Shown piece by piece: positions 3-15,881 of a stretch of DNA of 53,127 nucleotides. Made by a program: the position numbers and the translations under genes. Source of the stretch: an uncultured Methanosarcinales archaeon. GTDB lineage: Archaea; Nanobdellota; Nanobdellia; Woesearchaeales; JASKKU01. The first letter of the stretch is position 1; each line of letters opens with the position of its first letter. The stretch covers positions 39,520 through 92,646 of the forward strand of contig CAYQFL010000001.1 of assembly GCA_964416905.1 (NCBI GenBank). Direction: 5' to 3'. The notes under the pieces were generated by a model that worked only from the letters and a program-made list of their open reading frames with translations, made no database searches and was not told where the DNA came from.

Positions 3-2666
3 TTTAACGGTCAGGACTGTGATAGCTTAGAAGCTATAGACTGTGAAATCATTGAGTATAATAAAACGGCTAAAAAATTAACTATAGCGATAGATAATCC
101 TGGAGAATATCGTGTAAAAGAAGGGCTTAATGGAGCTATTTCTTTAAAGATATACACTTTTAGAGATAACACTGAATCCACAGACATATATTATCAAGAA
201 CCTGTTTTCTTCAGAGCCAAATACACTTTACCAGTCTACTTTGAAGATTTTGAGAACATAAATTGCTCAATCATTGTTAAAAATGAAAGTGGCATGGTAG
301 TACTCAATGAAGATATGACCCTTAATGCAAGCTACCCAGACTCTAACTTATCCTATGCTATATTCCTAACAAACATTACTGATTCATATTTACCAGTAGG
401 AACATACCATACACAAACGACTTGCCGTCCAAAAAACGGTAGTGGCTACTTTTGGGATCCAAAGACAATTTACAAAGACTTTGAAGTTAAAACAATAAAA
501 ATAAGCGAGAGATACTGGAGCGATACAAAACCTGTACTGCTTTATGATATAACCCAGAGTGAAAACACTACTATGCTAGAGGAAGATGCTAAAAAATATT
601 CCATAAATTTAAATGAAGACGATGATAACAAGAAAACCCTCTATAATAACAACATTTCTTCAGTTTACATTGCTGTGTACCAAGATATTTCTTCTAACGA
701 TACTGTTCTTACACAAAGCAACACAATCAAAGAATTCGTGTGCAACATCTCCTGGGGAGACAACACCTCTGAAATTAAAGCACTAAATGAATCTTTAGAG
801 GAAATCACAATATTACACGAAGAAAAAGGAACAATAACGAATGTTTCCAAAATCAATATCTCAATACTCACTCATAAATATGATTGGCCCGGCGATTATG
901 ATACACATATTCACTGTTATGATCCCGAAGGCATTTATTGGGACTTTTTTGATCAAAAGGAAATAACTATCACTAACAGAAAACCTGTCCTTGCATACGA
1001 AATACCAGATGTAACTTGGTATAAGGACAGCGTTTATTCTCCATATAAATTGGATGATTATTTCTATGACCCTGATGGCGAGAACTTATCATATACTGCC
1101 TTAGAAGTACCAGAAATAGCAATCTATATCTCTAATGATTCTTCTGTTGTTCTTATGCCTGAGAAAGGCTTTGTAGGCTCAAGAATAACATTTTTCACTG
1201 CAATAGATAACTTCGATGCCGCTACCAACTCAAACCTTGTAAATTTAACCGTAATTGGTGAGGAAAAGGAAGAGTACAAAGAGTATGAAGAAGAAAAATC
1301 TTTGCCAGGAGAACCTCCTTTATTACCATTATGTCAGGAGCAGTGGAACTGTACTGAGTGGGGTAAATGTATGCCGTCAGGCATTCAAGTAAGGAAGTGT
1401 TACGATATCAACAACTGTAACACTACTTTCAATAAACCAATTGAATGGAGAACTTGTGTATATACGCCGACTTGCGATGACGGTCTAAAAAACCAAAACG
1501 AAACTGGAGTAGACTGCGGAGGACCTTGTCCGCCATGCCCTTCGTGTAATAATGGTTATCAAGATTGGAATGAAGAAGGCATAGATTGTGGCGGGTATTG
1601 CCCACCATGTCCTACCTGTTATGATGGACTACAAAATCAAGGTGAAGAAGGAATAGATTGTGGAGGACCTTGTCCACCCTGTAGAGAAGAACAGACTCCA
1701 GGAATAGTTCAAACGATTATCATAAACCATCTAAATGAGATAATTATTATTTCAGCTTTGTTAATTGTAACACTTTCATTCGCATCACTCTTATTCAAAA
1801 AAGTTTCTTCATTCAACAGGTTCATCGTTAAAATAGTCAACAAAATAATCTCAGCTCTATCAATCCCTTCATTCACTGAGCAGAACATTTATTCAGAACT
1901 CATCTTTAAAGTTAACAGATTAGAAAGGTTTGCAACAAGAGGCAAACTAAGTGTTATACTTGAGAGAGCAAACGAAATTTTCAAAGAGGTAATTAAGAAC
2001 TTTTTATTGATTGAGGAAGATAAAAGTTACGATGAACTGATAGAAGTAATCTCACACCTTCATTTAAATGAAGTCGATAAATTATTATTACAATATTTAG
2101 CATTAGAATTTGAAAAAGTCAAATTTAGTGATCAAAAAAGTATTTCCAGAAAGAAGTTAATCTCACTAATCAGGAAGATTAAATTGTTAATAGAAAGAAA
2201 CAAACACATTTTACTAGAAGTGCAGCTCAATAAAGAAATTGAGTCTCTTCAAAAAGACATCGAAGAATCATCCAAATCTGAACTTATTGAAAAACGTGTA
2301 CTGCTTAGCTTATTGAGAGAACTATTATTGATTAACGAAAAAATCAAGCAAAGGAAACTGAGAGATGCTATTAGAATCTATAAGAACATAAAGAGGTTGT
2401 ACTCACAACTAAACTTTTGGAACAGGGTCAAAGTATACAATAGAGTTTATGAAACTGTGTTGCGGTTGCAAAAGCTAATCAAAGAGTATAAAGAACTTAA
2501 CCGACAAATCAATACAATGTCCAAACCTCAGAAAGAAGTAACTGCACCAGCAATAACCAAAAGTCCTGAATTAATACAAAATGCATTTAAGGAAAAGTTT
2601 AAATTAAAAAGAATTGGTGAAAAAATAAAGCAGATTTTCAGAAAAAGAGAAAAATCAAAAAAATGA
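3..2666 (+). CDS. Large membrane-anchored surface protein, 5'-truncated by the window edge (Ig/cadherin-like modules, TSP1-like Cys motif, 3 Cys-rich repeats, one TM helix, cytoplasmic helical tail)
   Basis: Frame is open from base 3 (FNGQDCDSLEAIDC...) into the tracked ORF 294..2666, so the real start is outside the window. Contains NRKPVL...DYFYDPDGENLSYT cadherin-like module, CxxxWxCTEWGKC...RKC motif, TM IIIISALLIVTLSFASLLF. Confidence 0.85.
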   Translation, partial: FNGQDCDSLEAIDCEIIEYNKTAKKLTIAIDNPGEYRVKEGLNGAISLKIYTFRDNTESTDIYYQEPVFFRAKYTLPVYFEDFENINCSIIVKNESGMVVLNEDMTLNASYPDSNLSYAIFLTNITDSYLPVGTYHTQTTCRPKNGSGYFWDPKTIYKDFEVKTIKISERYWSDTKPVLLYDITQSENTTMLEEDAKKYSINLNEDDDNKKTLYNNNISSVYIAVYQDISSNDTVLTQSNTIKEFVCNISWGDNTSEIKALNESLEEITILHEEKGTITNVSKINISILTHKYDWPGDYDTHIHCYDPEGIYWDFFDQKEITITNRKPVLAYEIPDVTWYKDSVYSPYKLDDYFYDPDGENLSYTALEVPEIAIYISNDSSVVLMPEKGFVGSRITFFTAIDNFDAATNSNLVNLTVIGEEKEEYKEYEEEKSLPGEPPLLPLCQEQWNCTEWGKCMPSGIQVRKCYDINNCNTTFNKPIEWRTCVYTPTCDDGLKNQNETGVDCGGPCPPCPSCNNGYQDWNEEGIDCGGYCPPCPTCYDGLQNQGEEGIDCGGPCPPCREEQTPGIVQTIIINHLNEIIIISALLIVTLSFASLLFKKVSSFNRFIVKIVNKIISALSIPSFTEQNIYSELIFKVNRLERFATRGKLSVILERANEIFKEVIKNFLLIEEDKSYDELIEVISHLHLNEVDKLLLQYLALEFEKVKFSDQKSISRKKLISLIRKIKLLIERNKHILLEVQLNKEIESLQKDIEESSKSELIEKRVLLSLLRELLLINEKIKQRKLRDAIRIYKNIKRLYSQLNFWNRVKVYNRVYETVLRLQKLIKEYKELNRQINTMSKPQKEVTAPAITKSPELIQNAFKEKFKLKRIGEKIKQIFRKREKSKK
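1470..1685 (+). repeat. Three tandem 72-nt (24 aa) Cys-rich repeats, consensus (T/S)CxxGxxxxxExGxDCGGxCPPC
   Basis: TCDDGLKNQNETGVDCGGPCPPCP / SCNNGYQDWNEEGIDCGGYCPPCP / TCYDGLQNQGEEGIDCGGPCPPCR start at 1470, 1542 and 1614. Confidence 0.95.
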
Positions 2667-5600
2667 ATAATCTTAAGCTTTTTTCGGCGCTTGTAGCAGT
2701 TTTAGCATTAGTTTATGTTTTCACATATAGCTTACCCCCTAATGTCAAAGCAGACATATGGGATAGTTTCTTTAATGGATTCAATAGCATAACTGGATTT
2801 TTAACTGAAGAGGATTATCTTGGAACCTGTTCTGATCCTGTAGGGAATCAAACACCTTATTTTCCCTGCGTTTTACCATCGCAGATAAACCTAACACAGG
2901 GCGATAACTTTCTTTATCAGATATGTTATGCCGACCCGGAAAATGATCCTGTATTGATAAAAGCGGCGCCTGCGCCTGGCGAAGATTCCTGGAACAAGAT
3001 TATCAACAGCATGAACTATAGTGGTTTCATTAACATAACCTTAGACAACAGCGATGTAGGAATTCATAAAGTAATTTATCTTCTACAAGATGCGTGCCAT
3101 TCAGACGATCTAAATAATAAACAAATCATCTATTATGTAAACAACACAAATGATGTTCCAGTCATTGTTGATAAAGCGCCGAACCAAACAGGAGTTACAC
3201 TATTTGAAAATGAGACAGCCTTATTTTCAATAAATGCTACAGACCCCGACCTTTTTGTAGATCAAAGAGTCTTCAATGAAACTTTAAATTACACTTGGAC
3301 TTTAAACAGCTTGATCGTCAAAACAGAAAATGAAACTAAGAATACAAGCTCTAATTATAGCGCGTTCTTTGATTTCTGCAGTGCCGGAACTTGGCAACTA
3401 AGTATTGAAGTCAAAGATAAATCCGGAGAAAAAGATGAGTTCTTATGGACTATCCAAATTAATGATGTAAATAGAGTCCCATATCAAAATGAATCATTCC
3501 CCGAAAATATAACGTTAGATGAAGACAACCCAGCCCTGAATGCCCTAAACATGTACGACTATTTTACAGACCCTGATTTAGAAGAATGCGGAGCTTCAGA
3601 CACAGATTTAAACTTCACATCAGATGTACCTTGGGTTTTTGTAGATAATATCTCAAAGAACTTATCAATAATACCTCCTCAAGACTGGTTTGGAGTCATA
3701 AACGTAAGCTTTAATGTAACTGATGGAATTGCAGAAAACCAGAGTGAAAACCTAACAATAATTGTTAACCCAGTGCCCGATGCGCCAAGAATCGAAAACT
3801 TAACTAATGAAACAGCTGTTGCTAATTTTCCTTTCCATTACAAAATTGACGCCTACGACCCAGATGGAGACAACATCACTTTTTATGATAATACAAGTTT
3901 GTTTGAAATAGATTCAAACAGTGGAGAAATCAGTTTTACTCCGGACATTGCCGATGCAGGATTGCATCACATAAATATAACTGTTGTAGATAACACTAGC
4001 AGACAGACAAGTGCAATATTCAACCTAACAATCATAATAAATCAACCACCAGTTTTCACAAAATGTGAAAATATAACAACTTATGAGAATAACAATACCT
4101 TTGTAGAAGTAGAATACTTTGATCCTGAAGGTGATAATATTAGCGTTTCTGATAATTCAACCCTGTTCACAATAGCCAAAGTTAACAACACATATGCATC
4201 AGCTACGTTCACGCCAACAAATGATGATGTAGGCAACCATACTGTAAACATAACATTAACAGATAGTTGGAATTCTTCCTCGAGCTGTTTAATGGCTATA
4301 GAGATTATTGATGTGAACAATCCACCAGTACTTCAAGAAATAGAAAGCCCTCAGGAATTAAGAATCAATAAAAGTTATTATCTAAAGGTTAATGCTACGG
4401 ATGCTGATGATGATCCTCTAAACTTCTCAGATAATTCCACTGTAATAAACATAAGTGAAACAGGCATAATCAACATAACAAATGTTTCAATACCAGTTGG
4501 GGATTATTTAGTAAACATTAGCGTTTGCGATCCTTACGGATTATGTGATTGGCAGAACGTAATCTTCTCAGTTAAAATAAACCATCCACCACAGTTCATA
4601 GATTTAGATAAAGATTTCAGTTGTGAAGAAGACACACCTTGCTACATTGACTTCAATGCTACTGACCCCGAGAATGACGCAGTATATTTTAGCATTAATG
4701 ATTCTAGTATACTTATCAACAAAACAAGCGGCGAGGTTAACTTCACTAAAAGTGAACCTCAGTTATTGAATATAACGCTGACAGCTACTGATAACTGGAA
4801 TGACTCAAATTCCACTTCAGTTTTAATAAACATCACAGAGAAAAATGATCCCCCTTTAATCCTAGAAGAAAGCACATTAGATATAACTGCTGAAGTTAAT
4901 AGTTTAGTAATCGTTGAAATCTACCTTTATGACGAGGAAAACGACACAATAAACTTAACCCAAAACGATACAAGCCTCTTTAATTTAACCCAAATAAACA
5001 ACACGTATTATAATGCATCATTTGTCCCAACACTCAGTCAAATAGGAGTCCACAAGATTTTATTAAATGCTTCAGATTTAAAATCTAGTACTAGTAAAGT
5101 TTTAACAATAAACATAACACCTGAGAATCTACCTCCAACAATCAATAATAGAACACCGTCTCAATCCTCTCTTGGATTGTATGAAATGGACAGCATATTC
5201 TTTTCAGTGAATGCAAGTGATCCTGAAGGCGAAAATCTACAATATGCATATATCTTAGATAACAAAGTCGTTTCCACACAAAAGAATTATACATATAGAC
5301 CAGATTGGTATTCTGAAGGCACTCATAACTTACAGGTTAATGTTACCGATGAGCATAATAAAACAAATTCAACATCCTGGAGCATATATGTAACCAACCG
5401 TAATAGGAAGCCTATAATGCTAAAAAGGGTATTTAATTCTTCAATAGACCTCGATTGGATTAATGAAAGTATTTTAAATGATGTTGTCTTCAACAATGAA
5501 AATCTTCAGTTTGAATTAGAAAAAGTCAACGGCAATTATACAAGCAACGGCTCAATAATCTTCCCAATAATCTCCTTTAAAACTGATGCTTTCACTGAAC

Positions 5601-6922
5601 CAAGTATTGGAATACAAGCTGAAAACATTATGGTTTCTCCGAATTGCACAACCAATGTTACATACCAGTACAGATTTTCTACCAACAATCCGCCATTAGA
5701 GTTTATTGAAGACCTTGCATGGTCAGAGTGGAGTAGTGAAGATTCAGAGCTTAATGAGAAGACTTTAAATGTATCCACTAGTTCAAAATACTGGCAGATT
5801 AAAGTAAACCTAAGAACTAATTGCACCAACGAGAGCCCTAGAGTAAAAGGTGCTGTTTTTTCTTTCAAACCTGCAACAGTAGATGTATTTCAAGGCGTAG
5901 CTGAAGCTCAATGGATTTATCTACCTGATTTTGTATATGACCCAGATAAGGATGATAAGTTAAGTTATAACGCTTCTTCGGTCATTCCAGGCATAGAAGT
6001 TTTCCCAGACCCTGAAGAAGAGCCTTGGCCTAATACTGGCTGGCTCTACCTATCTACACCAGATTACTTTGCCGGGAAGACCAGCATAAATCTAAGTGTA
6101 AAAGATGACCATAATGATGAAGTAAACGATTTGTTCCCAATAAATGTATTAGAAAGACCTTCAGAGGTTGGTACAAGGATTGAATACAAAATAAAAACTA
6201 AGACCGAGATTCAATACGAAGAAAAGATTGTTGAAAAAGAAGTTCCAAGATATGAATCTTTTAATCTGATTGTTCCGGAAAAAATAACTTTGTATCCAAA
6301 CGATTCTATTGTTGTTCCAATTACTTTAGACAACTATGGCAACAAAACCTTGAACGAAGTCAGGCTTTATGCAAACAGTTCCAGAGATGACGTTGACATT
6401 TTCCTTACGCAAGATTACTTTAAAGTGATCAAATCAGAAAGCCAAGAGAAAACTGAATTAATAGTAACAACTAAAAATATATATGGAGGTTTTGATATTG
6501 TTGTAACTGCAGAAATACAAGACCCGCCATTCAACGATACTGCCAAAATAATAATGGCAACTTTAGAGAAAGGCGAACATAATTCTTCTCAACTTTACAC
6601 AAAAGTATCTTTTACCAGGGATTTACTTAAATCCAACGAACAATGTTTAGAACTAAATGAAATGGTTAAAGAAGCTGAAAACTTGATTTCCCAAGGCAAA
6701 TATTCTTCTGCAGAACAGCTATTACAATCAACTATTGAAGCCTGCAAATATTTAGTAAGTACTAAACAGAGTAAAGAGGAACTTAAAGTTGAGCAAAGAC
6801 CTATTAAGTTTGAGATCTCTTTGAAAAACAATACGTTCATCTTGATAACCATAATTAGTATTTCGTTCATATTGCTGGTAATTATACTATATTGGTTAAC
6901 AGTAGTTCCAAGAAAGAGATAA
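2663..6922 (+). CDS. Giant surface glycoprotein/adhesin (1419 aa) with tandem cadherin/Ig-like repeats and C-terminal TM anchor
   Basis: N-terminal signal peptide, about 10 modules bounded by N(x)PP / DP(D/E)xD motifs, more than 50 N-x-S/T sequons, C-terminal TM FILITIISISFILLVIILYWL followed by PRKR. ATGA overlap with the upstream stop. Confidence 0.85.
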   Translation: MNNLKLFSALVAVLALVYVFTYSLPPNVKADIWDSFFNGFNSITGFLTEEDYLGTCSDPVGNQTPYFPCVLPSQINLTQGDNFLYQICYADPENDPVLIKAAPAPGEDSWNKIINSMNYSGFINITLDNSDVGIHKVIYLLQDACHSDDLNNKQIIYYVNNTNDVPVIVDKAPNQTGVTLFENETALFSINATDPDLFVDQRVFNETLNYTWTLNSLIVKTENETKNTSSNYSAFFDFCSAGTWQLSIEVKDKSGEKDEFLWTIQINDVNRVPYQNESFPENITLDEDNPALNALNMYDYFTDPDLEECGASDTDLNFTSDVPWVFVDNISKNLSIIPPQDWFGVINVSFNVTDGIAENQSENLTIIVNPVPDAPRIENLTNETAVANFPFHYKIDAYDPDGDNITFYDNTSLFEIDSNSGEISFTPDIADAGLHHINITVVDNTSRQTSAIFNLTIIINQPPVFTKCENITTYENNNTFVEVEYFDPEGDNISVSDNSTLFTIAKVNNTYASATFTPTNDDVGNHTVNITLTDSWNSSSSCLMAIEIIDVNNPPVLQEIESPQELRINKSYYLKVNATDADDDPLNFSDNSTVINISETGIINITNVSIPVGDYLVNISVCDPYGLCDWQNVIFSVKINHPPQFIDLDKDFSCEEDTPCYIDFNATDPENDAVYFSINDSSILINKTSGEVNFTKSEPQLLNITLTATDNWNDSNSTSVLINITEKNDPPLILEESTLDITAEVNSLVIVEIYLYDEENDTINLTQNDTSLFNLTQINNTYYNASFVPTLSQIGVHKILLNASDLKSSTSKVLTINITPENLPPTINNRTPSQSSLGLYEMDSIFFSVNASDPEGENLQYAYILDNKVVSTQKNYTYRPDWYSEGTHNLQVNVTDEHNKTNSTSWSIYVTNRNRKPIMLKRVFNSSIDLDWINESILNDVVFNNENLQFELEKVNGNYTSNGSIIFPIISFKTDAFTEPSIGIQAENIMVSPNCTTNVTYQYRFSTNNPPLEFIEDLAWSEWSSEDSELNEKTLNVSTSSKYWQIKVNLRTNCTNESPRVKGAVFSFKPATVDVFQGVAEAQWIYLPDFVYDPDKDDKLSYNASSVIPGIEVFPDPEEEPWPNTGWLYLSTPDYFAGKTSINLSVKDDHNDEVNDLFPINVLERPSEVGTRIEYKIKTKTEIQYEEKIVEKEVPRYESFNLIVPEKITLYPNDSIVVPITLDNYGNKTLNEVRLYANSSRDDVDIFLTQDYFKVIKSESQEKTELIVTTKNIYGGFDIVVTAEIQDPPFNDTAKIIMATLEKGEHNSSQLYTKVSFTRDLLKSNEQCLELNEMVKEAENLISQGKYSSAEQLLQSTIEACKYLVSTKQSKEELKVEQRPIKFEISLKNNTFILITIISISFILLVIILYWLTVVPRKR

Positions 6923-6949
6923 ACTCTAATAAATTAAAACATCAAAACT

Positions 6950-7600
6950 TTATTTGTTTTGCTTGGCGCGTTTAATATCTAAGAACAAGTTTAAGATATC
7001 TCCTTTTACTTCCTTTTGATCATTCTCATCAAGTAATTCATAAGCTCGCTTTATTTTATTATAAAGTTTTTCTGCGTCCTGAACTCTGTTTAAATCCAGA
7101 TAAGAGTAAGCTTTTATGATCATTTTTTGTATATCTAACTTCGTGACTCTTTTACGTATTGCTTTCAAAAGAAGCAAAATTAAACTTTTTTTCTTTTTAG
7201 GTAAAGGATTACTACTCTTTTTGTTCGCTTCCCTATGTAAATGAAGCTGGTTCAAAATAACAAGTATTTCATCAATGATTGATAAAAGCGTGTTCTTATC
7301 CACCACTTCAGGAGCATATTCTATAGAGGTGATTCTTTCATTAAAGGAAATCATCTTTTGTTTTATTGCATAAGGAATGGTTTTTTTATTCTTTATTTCA
7401 TGATTGATTTCCTCAAAAGTTGTTGAGTACTTAACATGCAACAGTTTTGAATAAAATCTCCTAATAATATGAAACAAGTTTATTTTAAGTTGTTCAGAAT
7501 CTAGGTCTCTTGACCTTTTTTTTAAATCCGCTAACTCTAATGAGAATTTATTGAAAGGATCCTCTTTAGATTTAGAACGCGCAATTTTACGTTTAAACAT
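6950..7600 (-). CDS. Soluble all-helical protein, DUF4381/DUF4129-like, resembling the cytoplasmic tail of CDS 3..2666
   Basis: 216 aa ORF with ATG start, divergent from moxR. Motifs IIRRFY..STTFEEI...SIEYA and AEKLYNKIKRAYELL are mirrored in the ORF1 tail. Confidence 0.7.
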   Translation of the reverse strand: MFKRKIARSKSKEDPFNKFSLELADLKKRSRDLDSEQLKINLFHIIRRFYSKLLHVKYSTTFEEINHEIKNKKTIPYAIKQKMISFNERITSIEYAPEVVDKNTLLSIIDEILVILNQLHLHREANKKSSNPLPKKKKSLILLLLKAIRKRVTKLDIQKMIIKAYSYLDLNRVQDAEKLYNKIKRAYELLDENDQKEVKGDILNLFLDIKRAKQNK

Positions 7601-7695
7601 ACGTATTCTTCAGGGAAACTCATTTTTAAAAATTTGTTGTTTCTCGCTCGTTAAAAAACAGATTTAAAAGGGTTAAGAGTTTTAATATCACTCAT

Positions 7696-8685
7696 ATGGT
7701 TTTATCAATAACAAAAGAAGAAGCAAATAAAATCAAAAATGAGGTAGACTTAATAAAAAAAGAAATCAGTAAAGTTTTTATTGGTCAGCGCGAGATTATT
7801 GATGGTTTCATTACATGTTTATTATCAAATGGTTCTGTTCTGATTGAAGGTGTTCCGGGTTTAGGAAAAACTCTTTTGGCAAGAACAATTGCTAAAGTCT
7901 TGGGAGTACAATTCTCGAGGATTCAATTTACACCAGACCTTCTACCTACAGATATCATTGGTATTACAACTTATGAAGAGGGCAGAGGTTTCTATGTCTT
8001 AAAAGGACCAATCTTCGCAAACATTGTTCTGGCAGACGAAATCAACAGAGCTCCACCTAAAGTTCAATCTGCGTTGCTAGAAGCCATGCAGGAAAAACAG
8101 GCAACAATCTCTAAGGAAACGTTTGAATTACCAAAACCATTCTTTGTTCTGGCTACAGAGAACCCATTAGAAAGTTTGGGTACTTATCCACTACCTGATG
8201 CTCAGTTAGATAGATTCCTGTTTAAAATTTTCATAGGTTATCCTTCTCTTGAAGAAGAAAGGCGGATTCTAGATACAAACATCACTTCTAAAAAGTTTGA
8301 AGATTACGATCTTAAAGCGGTTTCCTCTGCTGACAGAATCCTTGAATTGCAGGAAAAGCTAAAGAATGTCTTTGTCGATGAAAAAATCAAAGAATATATT
8401 GTTAAAATTGTTGATGCTACCAGAAATCCTGATAAGTATAAGCTCAAATTAGGCAAATACATACAATACGGCGCATCCCCTAGGGCATCAATTGCTTTTT
8501 ATCTAAGCAGTAAAGTGGATGCTGTTACAGTTTTCGGAAAGAATTATGTAACCCCTTATAATGTAAAGAGGGTTGCAAAACACATTTTAAATCACAGAGT
8601 AGCTGTTAACTTCGAGGGCGAAACAAACAACATAAGCTCTTTTGACATAATTGAAGAGATTATCACCAAAATTCCAGTGCCATAA
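7696..8685 (+). CDS. moxR: MoxR family AAA+ ATPase
   Basis: GVPGLGKT, RIQFTPDLLPTDIIG, LADEINRAPPKVQSALLEAMQE, ATENPLE, GASPRAS. Confidence 0.95.
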   Translation: MVLSITKEEANKIKNEVDLIKKEISKVFIGQREIIDGFITCLLSNGSVLIEGVPGLGKTLLARTIAKVLGVQFSRIQFTPDLLPTDIIGITTYEEGRGFYVLKGPIFANIVLADEINRAPPKVQSALLEAMQEKQATISKETFELPKPFFVLATENPLESLGTYPLPDAQLDRFLFKIFIGYPSLEEERRILDTNITSKKFEDYDLKAVSSADRILELQEKLKNVFVDEKIKEYIVKIVDATRNPDKYKLKLGKYIQYGASPRASIAFYLSSKVDAVTVFGKNYVTPYNVKRVAKHILNHRVAVNFEGETNNISSFDIIEEIITKIPVP

Positions 8686-8727
8686 TAACCAAGCATCATT
8701 TTACTTAAAATAAACTAAGTGATTCTC

Positions 8728-9603
8728 ATGCTAAAAGAGATAAAGGCAAATCTGAAGCCTTTAATCAAAAAATTAGAAATCCAGAGCCAAAAAAGTGTTT
8801 TCGGGGAGTTTACTGGCGAATACAGAACACATTTTAAAGGTCGAGGTCTGGATTTTGATGGGTTTAGAGATTACCTGCCTTCTGATGATGCATCAATGAT
8901 AGATTGGAGGGCAAGCTTAAGAGCTCAACACCTGCTAGTAAGAGTGTATAAAGAAGAAAGGAACCTTGATGTTTATATTGTGTTTGACACCAGCACTAGC
9001 ATGTGTTTCTCTTCAACAGATAAATTAAAAGCTGAGTTTGCAGCAGAAGTTGTTGCGAACCTTGCGTTTGGAGCAATTCAAGTGGGGGACAACGTTAGCT
9101 TAATTATGTTCAATGATGAAGTTAAGGCTTTCCTTGCACCAAAGCAAGGCAAATCGCAGTTTAGCAAGATAATCTCCTTGCTATCAGACCCAAAAAATTA
9201 CTTTGGGAACCTTAACTTTGAAGCAGCTATTTCAAGTTTAAAAAGTGCAATGAGAAAACCAGGAGTAATAATTATTGTTTCAGATTTTATAGGTTTCCCT
9301 GAAAACTGGGACTCATTAATTGCAGGGTTTGCAAAGTATTCAAGGATTTTAGGGATCATGATACGAGATCCTAGAGATGATGAAATCCCAAAAGAGTTAG
9401 GCGAATTAGTGCTAAGCGGTCCATACAGCAAAGAAGTTGTCAAATTTAACTCATGGATTCTGGCTGAAAGATTCCGGGAAGAAGTAATCAAACAAAAAGA
9501 AGATATTTTTAAAAAAATAAAAGCGCTTGAAGGTTCAATCCTAGAAATTAAAACAACCGAACCATTCGATAAAAAGATAAGGTCCTTTTTCGCTAGAGGC
9601 TAA
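8728..9603 (+). CDS. DUF58 family (vWA-like) MoxR partner
   Basis: FKGRGLDFDGFRDYLPSDDASMIDWRASLR, EERNLDVYIVFDTSTSM, IIVSDF. ORF track starts at GTG 8719; ATG at 8728. Confidence 0.9.
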   Translation: MLKEIKANLKPLIKKLEIQSQKSVFGEFTGEYRTHFKGRGLDFDGFRDYLPSDDASMIDWRASLRAQHLLVRVYKEERNLDVYIVFDTSTSMCFSSTDKLKAEFAAEVVANLAFGAIQVGDNVSLIMFNDEVKAFLAPKQGKSQFSKIISLLSDPKNYFGNLNFEAAISSLKSAMRKPGVIIIVSDFIGFPENWDSLIAGFAKYSRILGIMIRDPRDDEIPKELGELVLSGPYSKEVVKFNSWILAERFREEVIKQKEDIFKKIKALEGSILEIKTTEPFDKKIRSFFARG

Positions 9604-9610
9604 TATAAAA

Positions 9611-10567
9611 ATGGTCCAAATTGTATTTCAGAATGCAGAATTTTTATGGTTCTTGATTATTTTAGTGTGGATCATAGTAACTCATTTATTTATTTCTATA
9701 AAAGTAAAACAGAAAGCATTCCTTTTTGCCAACTTCGAAGTCCTTAAAAAGGTTGTATTCGAAGATAAAACCGAACCAAAAACAAACAAAATCAATTTAT
9801 CTTTAGATATTCTATTTCTAAGATTATTGACACTTACTTTCTTAATATTGTCTCTATGTCATCCTGTTGTGTGGTATGAGGGGAATGTTGCAAACAGGAA
9901 TTATGTACTAGCCATAGACTCATCAAGTTCTATGCTAGCTGATGACTTAAATCCAAATAGATTTGAGGTTGCGAAAAGTCACAGCAAATTCTTGGTAAAC
10001 AGAATAAAATCATTAAATTCGAAAGTAGGTATAGTCTCATTTGCAGGTTCATCCTTAATTGTTTCTGAGTTATCTGATGATTATGAAAAATTATTATCAA
10101 AGATTGATTCTATGGACGTATTAAACATCCCGGGAACAGATTTAGGCGAAGCCATAATAACCTCAGTAAACATTCTTCAATCTGAAACAAAACCTGGAGC
10201 AGTCATTTTAATCACGGATGGAAGGTCAACAGTAGGAACAAACCTCGAACAGGCAGTTTATTATGCAAGGGAGCGTCAAATTCCTGTATACACAATAGGT
10301 GTAGGTACCAAAGAAGGCGGTAAATTCATACCTGCTGGGTTCACAAAGCTCGACGAAGATCAATTGAAACAGATTGCTGAACAAACCGATGGAAAGTTTT
10401 TCAGAGCTGAAACAAAAGAAGATTTAGGAGAAAGTCTAAAAGAGATTGTTGAAATTGAAAAAGGTAAAGTTCCTTTAGATTTATCGATACCATTTATGCT
10501 TATAGGCTTAATCTTACTAAGCATCGAATGGGGAGTTCTAAACACAAAACGTAGGACCTTGCCATAA
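9611..10567 (+). CDS. BatA-like membrane vWA domain protein
   Basis: N-terminal BatA-like TM (FQNAEFLWFL), MIDAS LAIDSSSSM, NRFEVAK, GTDLGEAI, LITDG, YTIGVG, C-terminal TM. Confidence 0.9.
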   Translation: MVQIVFQNAEFLWFLIILVWIIVTHLFISIKVKQKAFLFANFEVLKKVVFEDKTEPKTNKINLSLDILFLRLLTLTFLILSLCHPVVWYEGNVANRNYVLAIDSSSSMLADDLNPNRFEVAKSHSKFLVNRIKSLNSKVGIVSFAGSSLIVSELSDDYEKLLSKIDSMDVLNIPGTDLGEAIITSVNILQSETKPGAVILITDGRSTVGTNLEQAVYYARERQIPVYTIGVGTKEGGKFIPAGFTKLDEDQLKQIAEQTDGKFFRAETKEDLGESLKEIVEIEKGKVPLDLSIPFMLIGLILLSIEWGVLNTKRRTLP

Positions 10568-10629: not shown

Positions 10630-10703
10630 GGGGCGGTAGCTCAGCCTGGGAGAGCACATGGCTGAAGACCATGGTGTCCGGGGTTCAAATCCCCGCTGCC
10701 CCA
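10630..10703 (+). tRNA. tRNA-Phe(GAA)
   Basis: GGGGCGG/CTGCCCC acceptor stem, CATGG-CTGAAGA-CCATG anticodon arm, GGTTCAAATCC T arm. No encoded CCA. Confidence 0.97.
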
Positions 10704-10726
10704 TGTTTTTCTAAGAATTTTAACAA

Positions 10727-12928
10727 TTACTCATTAGAAATCTGTTCTATATAATTACATTTTGGATATTTTGAACAGCCAAAGAAATAACCATGAGGTC
10801 CCTTCCTCAAAACTAATTCAGAACCACATTTTGGACATTTCTTTTGCTTGGCTTTCTCTCTTAAAAGCTTCTCTTCATTTTCAGACTTGATTTTGCTTGG
10901 ACAGTTGGGATTAATACATGAAAGTCTAGCTTTCTTTCTACCATACCTAAGTTTAACCAAAGGATAACCGCAGGCTTCACAAACCTTATCACTGGGTTTA
11001 ATTGTTGCATTCTTAGGAATGCTTAACGTGAACTTACAATTAGGGTAATTGCTACAAGCTAAAAATTTACCAAACTTGCCATCTCTCAAAACCAAAGTTC
11101 CATCTTCACAAGAAGGACATTTGCCAAAAGAGTTAGCTTTCCTATTTGTCTCAAACAAAGATTCTTTTAATTCTGTACCAATAACTTTTTCCTTCCCTTT
11201 AAAATCGTCAAGTATTTGTTCCAGAACAGTTTTTGATTCTTCAACAAGTTCATCTGCATCTTTTTTTCTCTCTCGAATCAATTCCATTTGCTCTTCTAAA
11301 TGACTAGTTAGCTTAACATCGACAATCTTAGGAGAATATTTCTCTAAGACCTTAACAGTAGCTATGCCAAAATCCGTTGCCACAATAGGATCATCCACAA
11401 TATAACCCCTTTGGTAAAGCGTATCAATTATCTGAGCCCTGGTTGCTTTCGTTCCCAAATTATGCTTTTCCATTTCTTTAATTAAAGAAGATTGGGTAAA
11501 CCTCTTAGGTGGTTTAGTTTCTTTCTCCTCAATTTCAACTTTTTTATTATGGAATACATCTCCTTTCTTAACATCAATAAAAGGAGATTCCTCCAAACGT
11601 AAAAATTTCTCATAGACTTTAAACCATCCCTTTTCTTTAGTATGCGTCGCACTAAAAGTAAACTGCTCGCCTTCAATATCAACAACCAATGATAAAGTTT
11701 CTCTTACAGCTGGTTCAGAAAAGGTTGCTAAAAACCTTCTAACAATCAAATCATAAAGTTTCATTAACTCTGGACTTAAATTCTTAGGGATAACCCCTGT
11801 AGGGTATATTGCTGGGTGAGCAGGGTCATCTTTCTTTCCATTACGAGGCCTTAAATTTTTCTGGCTTAAAAGCTTGCAAAACTCAGAGTAATCATTTATA
11901 GAAGACAAGTTCTTAATAATGGCTTTAAAGTTAATTGATGGTGGCAGTTTTTGAGAACTGGTTCTTGGATATGAAATATATGAGGAAAGGTAAAGCTGTT
12001 GCGCTAATTCCAATGTTTTCTTAGGGCTAAATCTATAAGCTGCATAAGCTTCAGTCTGCAATGTTGTCAAATCAAACGGTGTTGGTGGCAAAACCTTTTT
12101 GGTTTTAACATCAACTTCAGAAACAATACCATCTTTGTTCAGAATTTTGTTGTATATCTGTTCTACCTGTTGTTTATCATCAAATCTTTTGTTAACATGT
12201 TGAACTTTTATTTCTGTATTGGATAGCTCACCCAAAACGTATAACTCCCAATATTTCTGCGGTTTGAAGTTTTTGATTTGCTCTTCTCTATCAACAACAA
12301 GTTTCAAGGTTGGACCCTGAACTCGGCCTATGCTCATTACCTTAAAATAACCTGCCTTCCTAATAGAACTCATCAAAGCCCTTGACAGATTTATACCATA
12401 AAACCAATCAATTTTATGCCTAGCTAAACCAGCTAAAGCCTGACCCCAATCTAAAGAAGACATTGCGTTTTCAAAAGAAGACACAATTTCTTGCTTAGTT
12501 AAAGTAGAGAACTTCATTCGTTTTGCATCTTTTTGACCGCAAGCAAACCTAAGGATATTGTAACCAATTACCTCTCCTTCTACATCATAATCGCAAGCTA
12601 CAACAAAATCTGAAGCAGATTTAGCTAATTTCTTTATAACATTCAAAAACTGTTTCGTATGCTTCATCTGTTTGTTTATTTCGTAAAGCGGGAACCATTT
12701 AATATCAAACACAGGATAAGTCGTAGTTTTTTTAACCTCTGCCAACGAATACAAATGTCCAGCTGCTGCCACTACAATAATATTCTGTCCATTATGATTT
12801 AGCTTGTAATAAGAAACCTTACCTTCCTTAACAGTTTCAACCTTACCAGAAGACAGAAATGTTGCAATTTTCCTAGCGGCACTAGGTTTCTCTGCAATAA
12901 TCAAAGTGTAACTCATTATGAAAACCAT
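10727..12928 (-). CDS. topA: DNA topoisomerase IA with C-terminal Zn ribbons
   Basis: TOPRIM IIAEKPSAA, DYDVEGE, SIGRVQGPTL, catalytic YISYPRT, GTKATRA, three Cys4 zinc ribbons. Confidence 0.96.
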   Translation of the reverse strand: MVFIMSYTLIIAEKPSAARKIATFLSSGKVETVKEGKVSYYKLNHNGQNIIVVAAAGHLYSLAEVKKTTTYPVFDIKWFPLYEINKQMKHTKQFLNVIKKLAKSASDFVVACDYDVEGEVIGYNILRFACGQKDAKRMKFSTLTKQEIVSSFENAMSSLDWGQALAGLARHKIDWFYGINLSRALMSSIRKAGYFKVMSIGRVQGPTLKLVVDREEQIKNFKPQKYWELYVLGELSNTEIKVQHVNKRFDDKQQVEQIYNKILNKDGIVSEVDVKTKKVLPPTPFDLTTLQTEAYAAYRFSPKKTLELAQQLYLSSYISYPRTSSQKLPPSINFKAIIKNLSSINDYSEFCKLLSQKNLRPRNGKKDDPAHPAIYPTGVIPKNLSPELMKLYDLIVRRFLATFSEPAVRETLSLVVDIEGEQFTFSATHTKEKGWFKVYEKFLRLEESPFIDVKKGDVFHNKKVEIEEKETKPPKRFTQSSLIKEMEKHNLGTKATRAQIIDTLYQRGYIVDDPIVATDFGIATVKVLEKYSPKIVDVKLTSHLEEQMELIRERKKDADELVEESKTVLEQILDDFKGKEKVIGTELKESLFETNRKANSFGKCPSCEDGTLVLRDGKFGKFLACSNYPNCKFTLSIPKNATIKPSDKVCEACGYPLVKLRYGRKKARLSCINPNCPSKIKSENEEKLLREKAKQKKCPKCGSELVLRKGPHGYFFGCSKYPKCNYIEQISNE

Positions 12929-13095
12929 ATCTTAATGCGTTCTTTAAAAAGTTTTTTTATTATTTTTAAAATTTCTCCAATATCTTAAAGCAATCACTCA
13001 CCTTAAAGAATTAAAAAGAATTAAAAATAAAAAGGCTAATATTAAGAATAAAGTTTAAAACATCAACGCAAAGTAAATTTTTTTGGACAGATAAA

Positions 13096-15120
13096 ATGGC
13101 AAATTCAGAATCTGAATTAAAAAAATCTCTTAATTTACCTATTTTAATTATTCTCGCTATAACCTCAGTTGTTGGTTCAGGCATATTCTTTGTTCCAGCA
13201 ATTAGCGTTCAAATGAGCGGTGGAAGCGCTATTCTTGCTTGGACAATCCTTGCCATATTAAGTTTAATCATCATCTTATACTTTGCAGAATTAGCTAGCA
13301 TGTTCCCTTCTTTAGGTGGAGTTTACGAATTTGCTAAACAAGCATACAACAAATTCGCTGGCTTTTTAGTCGGTTGGACCGAATGGATCATTGGAAATTT
13401 GACAACGGCAATGCTTGTAGTTTCAGCGTTACAATTCATAATTCAACAGCAAACTGTTGTGATTTTAGGTTTGTCTTTAAGTAGTCAGCTTTTCAAAATC
13501 ATCTTGGGGATAACAATTATTGCAATCTTTAATTATGTAGCGTTTAGAGGTATTGAATTCAGTTCTAAATTTGTCATGACTTTCGGCATAATTCAGATGA
13601 TTCTGATTTTAGTGGTAATCTTCTTGGCATTCTTCTCAGGAAACTTTTCATTAAATAATTTCGAACCTTTCTTTTTATCTCAAGATACTCCACTAAATTT
13701 TACCAACTTGTTCATAACCTTAATCTTTATCTCTGATATTTTCTTGGGTATGGAAGGAATTTTCTCACTGTCTGAAGAAACAAAGAATCCTTCAAAAGTT
13801 GTACCAAAAGCAGTCATTATAGCTCAAATAATTCTTTCTCTTATATCCATAACCTCCTTAATTGCGATCATTGGGTTCTTTGGGGTTGAAAACTTAGTAA
13901 ACAACACTCTTGAATCTTCAACGAATCCAGGATGGGTTTACTTAAATATTGGTTATAGATTCTTCGGCGAAAACGGCGCTACTTTGTTTTCAGTTTTGAT
14001 TTTCCTTAGCATTATTGGTTCTGCTGCAGATTGGATAATAAGTGCACCAAGGTTGTTAATGGCAATGGCTAGAGATAAATTGTTCATTCCCCAATTAAAC
14101 AAAGTCCACAAAAAACATAAAACACCGTACAGAGCAATAATCTTTCAAACCATTATCATGAGCTTATTCACAGTCATTGGCTTAACAAAATCCGGTTATC
14201 AAACTCTAGTTCAGATTCTCATGCCATTAAGTTTTATGATAGTCATCTCAATGCTTTTTGCGGTAACCTATTTAAGATTTAGAAAACCACACATAGAAAG
14301 ACCTTTCAAAGCTCCGCTTGCTAAAGCTGGTCCAATCATCACAGCATTTATTCTTCTAATAATCCTAAGTGTCTGGATAAGATTTCAACCAAATGCAACA
14401 ACATTATTCGGAGTAGCTGCTTCTTTCGTGTTAATAGGATTCCCATTCTATTTATTAATGCAGTTTTATACTAATGAAAACATTAAGACGGCTTTTAATG
14501 AACATCTAACCAGAGCATACATACTCTTAGAATCAATAAATTTGCCAAAAAGACTGCGCAAAGAGATTTTAACATTAATGGGGGATTTAAGGAACAAAAC
14601 AGTAGTCGAATATGGTTGCGGCGTGGGCACGCTTACAAAAGAATTAGTCAAAGAAAGTAAAAATTCAACCAAGATTATAGCTGTTGATCAATCCATAAAG
14701 AACCTGAATATTGTTAAAAAGAGGATTAACAAAATCACAAACAAGAAGGGAATAGTAGTTAAACAGTTTCAAACACTGCTGGATCCTAAGCTTGAATTAA
14801 AATTTGATTCAAAAGCAGATATCTTAATTTTTAATGCCGTCCTCGATTCTATTCCTGACTTAGATAGCTTTCTTGTAAAAGTACGACAAAAACTCGCAAG
14901 TTCTGGACAGATTTATTTCATAGAGTTTTGCGACCTTTTCGGATTTTTACCAAATCCCCCTTATTTAGTTGACGAAAAAGAACTTGAAAACAAGTTTAAG
15001 AAACACGGTTTTGCTGTTAGGTTAATGAAAAGGCCTGGTCTTTTATGGAACTATCTCATAATCTATGGGTTTAAAGTAGACATCGAAAACACAGACAATA
15101 CAACTATCAGCGTAATCTAA
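13096..15120 (+). CDS. APC-family amino acid permease fused to a C-terminal class I SAM-dependent methyltransferase domain
   Basis: TM1 VVGSGIFF, GGVYEFA, EETKNPSK, about 12 TMs; then VVEYGCGVG (aa 505-511), IIAVDQS, DILIFNAVL, GQIYFIEF. Confidence 0.85.
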   Translation: MANSESELKKSLNLPILIILAITSVVGSGIFFVPAISVQMSGGSAILAWTILAILSLIIILYFAELASMFPSLGGVYEFAKQAYNKFAGFLVGWTEWIIGNLTTAMLVVSALQFIIQQQTVVILGLSLSSQLFKIILGITIIAIFNYVAFRGIEFSSKFVMTFGIIQMILILVVIFLAFFSGNFSLNNFEPFFLSQDTPLNFTNLFITLIFISDIFLGMEGIFSLSEETKNPSKVVPKAVIIAQIILSLISITSLIAIIGFFGVENLVNNTLESSTNPGWVYLNIGYRFFGENGATLFSVLIFLSIIGSAADWIISAPRLLMAMARDKLFIPQLNKVHKKHKTPYRAIIFQTIIMSLFTVIGLTKSGYQTLVQILMPLSFMIVISMLFAVTYLRFRKPHIERPFKAPLAKAGPIITAFILLIILSVWIRFQPNATTLFGVAASFVLIGFPFYLLMQFYTNENIKTAFNEHLTRAYILLESINLPKRLRKEILTLMGDLRNKTVVEYGCGVGTLTKELVKESKNSTKIIAVDQSIKNLNIVKKRINKITNKKGIVVKQFQTLLDPKLELKFDSKADILIFNAVLDSIPDLDSFLVKVRQKLASSGQIYFIEFCDLFGFLPNPPYLVDEKELENKFKKHGFAVRLMKRPGLLWNYLIIYGFKVDIENTDNTTISVI

Positions 15121-15173
15121 AATTCTTTTGTATTGAAAAAAGCTAAGAAGAATAAAAAACTGAATAAAAAAGT

Positions 15174-15776
15174 TTATCGAGAAGCATCAGCTTGCTTTTC
15201 TAACTCTACTTTCTTAGAGATTGCGAAAGAACTTTGATCTAATCTATATGCTGCTAAGAGCTCTTCAGCCAAACATTCTGCAAGGGTCTTCTTGGACTTA
15301 AAGCTCCTATTGTAAGTTCCAATGACAAAGTTCCTTAAAGCCAGATCAACCCTTCTCTGAGGAGCGCATTCAACAGCTTTAGGATACCTTGCTCCACCGT
15401 ATTCAATTGAAACAATCTCTTCTCTTGGAGCAGCGTTTTCAACTGCCTTAACAAGAACCTTTATAGGGTTCTCATTAGTTTTTTGCTCAAGGATCTCTAA
15501 AGCTTTATACACTGCATAATAAGCATTAGAGGTTTTACCTACAGCATGACCTGAGGTTAACTTATGTTTCTTACCTCTGTGTCCTGGAACAAAAAGCTTG
15601 TTGATTAATCTCTCAACGATGGATATTCTCGACTTATAGAATCTCCATCCCGCATATCTAGCTCCGGTCTTTGGAACAAATCTTGGAGTAAGAGTAATAT
15701 AACCTTTTAATCCAGGATCCTCAACCTCAATACCTTCAATACCCCATCTATTAAAAAACTTCACATCTGATGACAT
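15174..15776 (-). CDS. rps7: 30S ribosomal protein S7 (uS7)
   Basis: ISIVERLINKL, NPIKVLVKAVENAAPREE, APQRRVDLALR, KKVELEKQADASR. Confidence 0.97.
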   Translation of the reverse strand: MSSDVKFFNRWGIEGIEVEDPGLKGYITLTPRFVPKTGARYAGWRFYKSRISIVERLINKLFVPGHRGKKHKLTSGHAVGKTSNAYYAVYKALEILEQKTNENPIKVLVKAVENAAPREEIVSIEYGGARYPKAVECAPQRRVDLALRNFVIGTYNRSFKSKKTLAECLAEELLAAYRLDQSSFAISKKVELEKQADASR

Positions 15777-15881
15777 TTTCTGATTTGAACGGGTAAAAGC
15801 CAGATTTTTAAATTTTTTCTTTTTATTTCACCCAAAACTAACCCAAAATTTAATAAACTAAAAAAGGGTTCTGAGGAAAGT

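Follow-up and report, generated by a model that had tools for sequence, protein, structure and literature searches.

The window analysed here, a stretch of 53,127 nucleotides (nt) of archaeal DNA, carries two copies of one helical domain, of which one forms the predicted cytoplasmic tail of a large surface protein, encoded by the open reading frame (ORF) ORF1, and the other is a free-standing protein of 216 amino acids (aa) encoded beside a MoxR-DUF58-BatA gene cluster. Comparisons at the level of family profiles lead us to regard the ORF1 tail and the 216-aa protein as very probably homologous, that is, as ancient paralogs of a single domain. The original prediction, made by eye from the sequence, had claimed that the tail of ORF1 recurs as a soluble gene with the same two-block architecture; it was borne out on both points, the alignment to the family profile giving the predicted register residue for residue in both blocks. 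The elements on which the argument rests are the following.

3..2666, plus strand: ORF1, most likely a large type I surface protein; frame open from base 3, no match in a Pfam scan
1716..1796, plus strand: transmembrane (TM) helix of ORF1, IIINHLNEIIIISALLIVTLSFASLLF, followed by KK; hydropathy scan and sequence
1884..2447, plus strand: helical domain of the ORF1 tail, the tethered copy; family hidden Markov model (HMM), shuffles, hhalign and an HMM of soluble members only
2022-2051, plus strand: N-module motif S-Y-D-E-L of the ORF1 tail; sequence
2663..6922, plus strand: ORF2, a 1419-aa surface protein of Ig-like/cadherin-like repeats with a C-terminal TM anchor; Pfam and NCBIfam
6950..7600, minus strand: soluble 216-aa protein, the free-standing copy of the domain; orthologs in the same position, codon pattern, no TM
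7394-7429, minus strand: N-module motif Y-S-T-T-F-E-E-I of the 216-aa protein; sequence
2358-2438, plus strand (ORF1 tail), and 7007-7084, minus strand (216-aa gene): second block, the C-module pattern A..Y..I...Y..L

Homology of the ORF1 tail and the 216-aa protein

The sequence blocks quoted in the original prediction were found where it had placed them, the first block at 1968-2180, within the N-module of the ORF1 tail, and at 7265-7477 in the 216-aa gene and the second as given above. Direct pairwise comparison of the two proteins was not significant, with a Smith-Waterman score of 76 against 62.5 +/- 9.8 for shuffled sequences (z 1.4) and 97 of 1000 shuffles scoring as high. A non-significant pairwise alignment was what the original prediction had itself named as speaking against it, and on this comparison the claim would therefore have failed. 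BLASTP of the tail against the 216-aa protein returned only two high-scoring segment pairs of about 20 residues (E 0.02 and 0.05), and hhalign of two three-sequence profiles gave a probability of 5.5%, aligning just a 22-residue A..Y..I...Y..L stretch. The ORF1 tail was also put through word-indexed searches, once as a single sequence and once as an alignment; neither produced a match, probably because low-complexity words swamped them. The pairwise score, the short BLASTP segments and the low probability of the shallow profiles, together with a high HMMER bias term for the ORF1 tail (27.8 bits), speak for a resemblance that is mere shared K/L/E/I-rich helical composition between two unrelated sequences.

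Against this stand the results obtained with deeper profiles. An exhaustive HMMER search with the 216-aa family (three sequences) was run against 1.84 billion representatives, and 70 representatives belong to the family at a library-wide E<=1e-3. A family HMM was made from 93 domain instances drawn from remote homologs of the 216-aa protein and was run on all six-frame ORFs of the window. It matched the ORF1 tail through both modules, with E 2.2e-6 over HMM positions 14-201, the second match after the 216-aa protein, and these two were the only matches, the best of the other ORFs reaching E 0.17. The tail scored 24.7 bits, about 12 standard deviations above composition-preserving shuffles; none of 2000 global shuffles (-16.7 +/- 3.5, maximum -0.8) and none of 2000 shuffles made within 20-residue windows scored as well, while the reversed tail scored -15.2. 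Tails of ORF1 orthologs on three related contigs (designated L001, L005 and L009) matched the same HMM at 1e-7, 9e-7 and 6e-14 respectively, the last with low bias, and hhalign of four tails against the family gave a probability of 96.6% (E 6e-10) over 181 columns. An HMM built from TM-less members alone recovered all the tails (7e-6 for the window, 8.5e-12 for L009), and the link to the tails is therefore independent of tail-type training sequences. The family signature is kept in aligned columns of the ORF1 tail as S-Y-D-E-L, K-F-S and A-I-R-I-Y-K-N-I-K-R-L-Y-S-Q-L, even though the two copies of the window share only about 10% identity over HMM-aligned positions. A compositional artefact was thus rejected on the family HMM, the shuffle and reversal controls, the ortholog tail, hhalign and the soluble-only HMM, and we consider it exceedingly improbable.

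Structure prediction with AlphaFold2 (AF2) gave all-helical models, with nine helices for the 216-aa protein at a predicted local distance difference test (pLDDT) score of 81. The helices of the tail were in register with these at a constant offset of 17, in a single-sequence tail model of only pLDDT 60.

The 216-aa ORF lies at the predicted position and, in agreement with its description as free-standing and soluble, contains no hydrophobic segment; the original prediction did not mention that the gene is on the opposite strand, divergent from MoxR-DUF58-BatA. Stop to stop, its frame has just three codons 5' of the ATG, which rules out a longer N-terminus. Positional orthologs share 71%, 69%, 44% and 34% identity with the protein, and its nearest named homolog comes from a metagenome-assembled genome (MAG) labelled 'Candidatus Woesearchaeota archaeon'. 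In comparisons with two orthologs, substitutions at first, second and third codon positions numbered 48/30/116 and 51/31/121, third positions thus dominating, and 72-78 codon changes were synonymous. The gene is under purifying selection, and a spurious minus-strand ORF was ruled out by the ortholog conservation and the codon-position pattern.

Anatomy of the domain and its possible relation to DUF4129

The domain consists of two modules. The N-module, at about residues 15-130 of the 216-aa protein, is a bundle of five helices marked by the signature [YF]-x-[FY]-[TS]-[YF]-[DE]-E-[LI] ... [YF]-[SG], followed some 30 residues on by i-E-Y-s-g; the commonest form of the motif is YEFTYEEL, the 216-aa protein having YSTTFEEI and the ORF1 tail DKSYDELI. 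The C-module, at about residues 150-215, comprises one or more TPR-like hairpins of the pattern A..Y..I...Y..L....K..vY. Position 64 is Glu throughout the family (E64), and Y58 and Y180 are at least 90% conserved. Many members are TM-less proteins of 200-360 aa. In others the domain comes right after a TM helix: some have it behind an anchor at the N-terminus, and in signal-peptide proteins of 400-800 aa, with ectodomains that are Big_9/cadherin-like or of the alpha/beta-hydrolase type, it forms the C-terminal tail. The C-module was seen to be present two- or threefold in some homologs, and the N-module sometimes occurs alone, so that the two are separable units (L011 15837-16889; P0006, P0007, P0011, P0017, P0037 and P0066).

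Searches of Pfam, NCBIfam and PADLOC gave no meaningful match to the domain, those to BRWD1_N, PCRF and PknD falling far below the cutoffs. In a Foldseek search of the 216-aa model against the PDB the best E value was 0.17, the weak matches to HEPN-like and 14-3-3-like bundles being disregarded, and the family profile found among PDB sequences only designed helical bundles and weak matches resembling helix III of the J-domain. The domain family is undescribed, with no counterpart in Pfam, NCBIfam, the PDB or PADLOC. The C-module alone is TPR-like, in that A..Y..I...Y..L resembles a TPR helix pair. Weak matches of this module were to ANAPC3 (E 0.11), to TPR_6 (0.004, in one member) and to the J-domains of DnaJ (E about 0.1); curated thresholds were not reached and the HPD motif is absent, and the likeness is one of hairpins rather than of membership.

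The original prediction had also likened the first block to DUF4381 (PF14316) and DUF4129. DUF4129 is the C-terminal helical domain of TgpA-type transglutaminase-like and other membrane proteins, and is common beside MoxR/DUF58. The MoxR/DUF58 neighbourhood, the position after a TM helix and the register of the DUF4129 motifs agreed with the likeness to DUF4129; the Pfam models supported neither family, and the statistical support for DUF4129 was poor. Neither model matched the window proteins or 31 family domains at E<=10, nor any of 72 family members at E<=0.01, while a true DUF4129 member scores 28.8 bits on the Pfam model. Genuine DUF4129 proteins were collected from haloarchaeal MoxR/DUF58 loci, namely one from Halomicrobium (Pfam 1.3e-6), two from Halomarina, one from Haloarcula and TgpA of Salinibaculum, in which the domain follows the TM helix and reads '...AW..m......T-P-x-E......G......L...F..V-R-Y-G-G...'. 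Both hhalign and HMMER always placed T-x-x-E on f-T-y-e-E-L and Y-G-G on E-Y-s-g. The five-sequence haloarchaeal profile aligned with the family over 54 columns at P 0.036 and a probability of 1.4%, and single DUF4129 sequences gave P 0.03-0.2, one Catenovulum protein reaching 0.005. A tblastn search with a DUF4129 domain yielded two records only, and a hunt for DUF4381 among plasmid MoxR neighbours found none in the third genes of Bacteroides and Leptospira or in the neighbours in Cupriavidus and Photobacterium.

The domain and DUF4129 (PF13559) are thus alike in being helical, cytoplasmic and directly behind a TM helix, in breaking their helices at equal points (T-P-x-E ... (R/E)-Y-G-G against f-T-y-e-E-L ... 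i-E-Y-s-g) and in standing beside DUF58/MoxR. They differ in length, by about threefold (69 aa for DUF4129, about 190 aa for the domain described here), and in the extra N-terminal helix pair, the TPR-like C-module and the TM-less free form of the latter. Because motif register, post-TM position and neighbourhood coincide, kinship of the DPANN domain with DUF4129 is plausible, although membership is not statistically supported; a true relationship may be masked by the extreme difference in composition that separates haloarchaeal from DPANN proteins. On the haloarchaeal plasmid loci L019, L106, L107 and L108, MoxR faces an operon on the opposite strand that consists of DUF4129, a DUF7269 or hypothetical protein, DUF58 and a hypothetical protein, and on L019 an adhesin-annotated gene (5029-6879) precedes MoxR.

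Recurrence of the pair and its possible coupling to MoxR/DUF58

On the 5' side of the 216-aa gene the window carries the following elements, the genes among them being transcribed away from it.

7601..7695, no strand: divergent intergenic region of 95 bp, A/T-rich, between the 216-aa gene and MoxR; sequence reading
7696..8685, plus strand: MoxR-type AAA+ ATPase, MRP subfamily-like; Pfam AAA_3 1.6e-59, AAA_lid_2 4.7e-9
8719..9603, plus strand: DUF58 protein, VWA-like, with a DTSTS metal-ion-dependent adhesion site (MIDAS) motif; Pfam DUF58 1.8e-41, motif and hydropathy
9611..10567, plus strand: membrane VWA protein of the BatA type, MIDAS motif DSSSS; Pfam VWA 1.8e-19 and BatA 4.4e-7, NCBIfam BatA 1.8e-31

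The association of the pair with the ATPase locus, which the original prediction had drawn from this one stretch, was upheld by conserved synteny. On every longer contig examined (L001/L002, L005, L009, L011, L013 and L015) the free copy stands head-to-head with MoxR-DUF58-BatA, and both forms of the domain were found in one locus in four independent metagenome lineages (five loci). L009, whose free copy is 34% identical to that of the window, has the order ORF1-like (1095 aa), ORF2-like (1489 aa), free copy, MoxR, DUF58 and BatA. L011 represents a different surface-protein lineage. Here an 801-aa Big_9 protein, the tail of which matches the family strongly (1.5e-52), comes first; behind it are an Ig-like giant of 1665 aa and, on the opposite strand, a free copy of 350 aa (2.4e-72), and then MoxR and DUF58.

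A wider survey was made by scanning for a degenerate DNA motif in one genome per GTDB species, which gave 82 stretches, equal to 80 loci of 8 kb each. A family ORF was present in 76 of the 80 loci, the other four being bacterial loci that look like chance matches. Among the 91 family ORFs, 41 were TM-less, 34 were type I tails and 16 were N-anchored. Twenty-five of the 41 TM-less copies are divergent from MoxR, 23 of them within 400 bp and the others at 414 and 589 bp. A type I tail together with a second copy, free or N-anchored, was found in 12 of the 76 loci, and in seven of these 12 the free partner lies about 5 kb off on the opposite strand, as in the window. The order seen in the window recurs in L001, L005, L009 and L011 and in the survey loci L031, L032, L057, L061, L063, L064 and L082. 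By their labels, 31 of the 76 loci are from Woesearchaeota, 6 from Nanoarchaeota/Nanoarchaeia, 1 from Pacearchaeota, 1 from Micrarchaeota and 5 from unclassified archaea; the domain was found almost exclusively in MAGs bearing a Woesearchaeota, Nanoarchaeota or Pacearchaeota label (DPANN). A further 31 loci carry the label 'uncultured Methanosarcinales archaeon' or 'Methanosarcinales archaeon', and L026, with a family ORF beside MoxR-DUF58, is labelled Alphaproteobacteria bacterium; the labels or the binning of these loci look unreliable. Since the nearest neighbours of free copies and of tails are mostly of their own kind, and identity within a locus is 7-25%, the duplication is an old one and neither copy has since been lost.

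Few AAA+ gene clusters of prokaryotes are as common as MoxR-DUF58-VWA operons, for which few clients are known, and DPANN archaea, with their huge surface proteins, depend on attachment to a host. In this setting we propose that the helical domain would be a fourth component of the DPANN MoxR-DUF58-BatA module. The free form is usually transcribed divergently from MoxR, and single-pass surface proteins of neighbouring genes end in the same domain on the cytoplasmic side. Because the pairing is conserved, the simplest reading is that the domain is the piece recognised by MoxR/DUF58 and would serve in the cytoplasm for docking to, or recognition by, the MoxR AAA+/DUF58 (VWA) machine. From hydropathy and residue distribution, MoxR, DUF58, the 216-aa protein and the ORF1 tail are predicted to be cytoplasmic, and the ectodomains of ORF1 and ORF2 and the VWA domain of BatA to lie outside. 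By way of the tethered copy, the ORF1-ORF2 adhesin complex might then be connected through the membrane with MoxR/DUF58, either directly or with the free copy as the partner of the tethered one; the free copy could act as bridge, co-subunit or competitor. The surface complex would thereby be a membrane-spanning partner or client of the MoxR/DUF58 machine, and ATP-driven remodelling inside the cell would control its assembly or activity. As a speculation, the invariant Glu may be considered a candidate MIDAS ligand. Functional coupling of the domain with MoxR/DUF58 is an idea towards which we lean by a little, while any one specific role of the free copy, be it adaptor, decoy or co-assembling subunit, has in our view a low probability at most. 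The analysis shows homology, domain architectures, a likely topology and a conserved gene neighbourhood; any contact between the molecules, the way in which it would act and a function of the invariant Glu are inferred, as is, from synteny, the adaptor, decoy or hetero-oligomer mechanism put forward in the original prediction.

Several observations weigh against this proposal. Five free copies with adequate flanking sequence have no MoxR within reach, and many tail-type members are on 8-kb loci without a visible MoxR, the latter being uninformative rather than contrary as the giant ORF2 often fills the locus. The survey was seeded with a motif and confined to 8-kb loci, so that recurrence is shown and frequencies are biased, and it is silent on the number of DPANN MoxR operons without the domain. 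The tails are far less conserved than the free copies (mean identity 14% against 24%), a conserved common interface is not obvious between the window copies at their low identity, and the tail model is of low confidence.

An alternative, which we hold to be unlikely yet worth serious attention, is that both copies are clients, the domain associating with itself into a scaffold by which surface proteins would be clustered or anchored on their cytoplasmic side, and MoxR-DUF58 assembling or dismantling the resulting lattice. A free copy acting in it as a filler or capping subunit, or as a competitive decoy, is similarly doubtful. Such a scaffold would accord with the occurrence of the domain behind the TM helix of proteins with unrelated ectodomains (Ig-like, alpha/beta hydrolase), with the multiplied C-module hairpins of some homologs and with the stronger conservation of the free copies, as expected of a common subunit; MoxR ATPases have moreover been described as assembly and maturation chaperones with VWA partners (PMC8430577). 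Foldseek, however, found no likeness of the 216-aa model to known lattice or filament proteins.

The docking proposal can be taken further, into a DPANN-specific transmembrane coupling device in which the ORF1 and ORF2 adhesin complex, perhaps with the VWA domain of BatA, would be wired via the tail and its free paralog to MoxR/DUF58 for an integrin/talin-like, 'inside-out', ATP-driven control of host attachment by these episymbiotic archaea, the domain being a DUF58 ligand and a far-diverged DUF4129. We regard this elaboration as a long shot. If true, it would assign a role to the DUF4129/DUF58/MoxR association across bacteria and archaea, and confirmation of the DUF4129 kinship would extend the idea to many bacterial and archaeal MoxR loci. 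The tethered/free pairing in these tiny archaea hints at a link between surface adhesin and intracellular ATPase. The specific candidate that the locus offers for this link is one conserved cytoplasmic domain, found both in the tail of the adhesin and in a free protein encoded next to the ATPase. The case also illustrates how homology at very low identity can escape pairwise statistics and be recovered by family profiles.

It is improbable that the two copies are functionally unrelated and that the double presence of a common cytoplasmic module is coincidental. The family is sizeable and architecturally diverse, and both forms occur in just the 12 motif-selected loci mentioned above, which would suit a coincidence; 8-kb loci, however, are mostly too short to show both copies. 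In the whole window, furthermore, the only two matching ORFs flank one gene, and their order recurs on the four contigs and seven survey loci named above, typically with the copies about 5 kb apart and on opposite strands.

Comparison with known systems places the core of the cluster among Bat-type operons. The Bacteroides aerotolerance operon and the Leptospira Bat locus have MoxR-DUF58-BatA in equal order, with MIDAS-bearing VWA proteins. In contrast to these, the window has no BatB, BatC (TPR), BatD or BatE downstream but a topoisomerase gene on the opposite strand, and neither a divergent gene for a helical protein nor an adhesin pair whose tail matches such a protein is present in the bacterial Bat operons examined. 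MRP-type MoxR ATPases work with VWA/MIDAS partners, and no clients are known for them in Bat-type operons (PMC8430577). In the bifidobacterial PFNA cluster, pkb2-fn3-aaa-atp[MoxR]-duf58-tgm, the gene of a large surface protein of Ig fold (FN3) likewise directly adjoins those of MoxR, DUF58 and a transglutaminase-like membrane protein (PMC8430577). PFNA differs in being bacterial, and for its Ser/Thr kinase and its transglutaminase no counterpart was found among the scanned proteins of the window cluster; in the text of PMC8430577, by which and not by sequence the comparison was made, no tethered/free paralog pair is described. The MoxR-DUF58-BatA core is already known, and an Ig-fold adhesin beside MoxR/DUF58 has a bacterial parallel in PFNA. 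In the literature searched, no work links Woesearchaeota to MoxR, none of the few papers that name both DPANN and MoxR deals with this locus, and no earlier description was found of the domain as a tethered/free paralog pair bracketing adhesin genes.

Ternary conflict systems have a layout of MoxR, vWA and a third protein (PMC10907252), and the locus shares this layout if the 216-aa protein is taken as a VMAP-like third component and the surface proteins as sensors; its MoxR also matches Pfam bpMoxR above the cutoff (3.8e-11). A defence system is nevertheless very improbable here, as MoxR scores 200 bits on AAA_3 against 42.9 on bpMoxR, DUF58 and BatA accompany it as they do in housekeeping operons of the Bat type, family members have no peptidase, TIR, nuclease or other effector domain (the VMAP domain was not specifically searched), PADLOC was negative for the 216-aa protein, the tail, DUF58 and BatA, and the locus lies in conserved synteny among core genes (topoisomerase, ribosomal protein S7 and histidyl-tRNA synthetase).

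The surface proteins and the flanking genes

The N-terminus of ORF1 is cut off by the start of the window, the ATG at 294 being internal, and full-length orthologs are 1095-1141 aa long with an N-terminal signal or anchor sequence. The ectodomain has 21-30 N-X-S/T sequons and 24-28 Cys, whereas the 289-aa tail has 0-2 sequons, no Cys and basic residues straight after the TM helix. On account of this contrast and of the basic residues, ORF1 is most likely a type I surface protein with the helical domain on the cytoplasmic side.

ORF2 matches Big_9 (2e-19) and Cadherin_4 (3e-9) in Pfam and the tandem-95 repeat in NCBIfam (1.6e-21), and has 84 sequons. Its start overlaps the stop of ORF1 at 2663-2666 (ATGA), and the same 4-nt overlap is present in L005 and L009; this stop/start overlap suggests translational coupling of the two genes.

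The DUF58 protein has an intact DxSxS motif and no TM helix, and is therefore predicted to be cytoplasmic. BatA has the order TM, K-rich loop, TM, VWA, TM and KRR, and from hydropathy and the K/R distribution its VWA/MIDAS domain, between the second and third TM helices, is predicted to face outward, on the same side as the adhesins. The 95-bp spacer contains the TATA-like runs TTTTTAAAAATTT and GATTTAAAAGG and is a putative divergent promoter region. The 3' neighbour of BatA is a convergent topoisomerase IA gene, as it is in L001 and L005.

The DNA of the window is archaeal and of low guanine-plus-cytosine content (about 34%), and 99% of it is contained in a hydrothermal-vent metagenome run.

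Some minor observations were made on the surface proteins and on related loci. Just outside the ORF1 TM helix are Cys-rich repeats, two of exact pattern and a looser one between them, without a Pfam match.

1473..1682, plus strand: Cys-rich repeats of ORF1, C.DG..N..E.G.DCGG.CP.C; regular expression on the translation, kept in orthologs

The C-terminus of ORF1 (2580-2663) consists of a variable linker and then the basic motif K-E-K-F-K-L-K, which is invariant in three close orthologs. In one related MAG lineage, L001/L002, the ORF2 ortholog is separated from the free-copy gene by an inserted island of about 4 kb (10677-14510) that holds glycosyltransferase, methyltransferase and small genes; the free copy has remained beside MoxR, apart from the adhesins. 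In the variant loci L030, L044 and L059 one free copy is replaced by two tandem membrane-anchored family genes, divergent beside MoxR, of which one has its TM helix near residue 45-60 and a full domain and the other a TM helix near residue 220 and the N-module alone; in L091 only the half-domain gene of this pair is visible. Beyond BatA, a core-gene order shared with L001 and L005 extends over 10727-17183; the genes there encode topoisomerase IA with Zn ribbons, an amino-acid-permease/methyltransferase fusion of 674 aa, ribosomal protein S7 and histidyl-tRNA synthetase.

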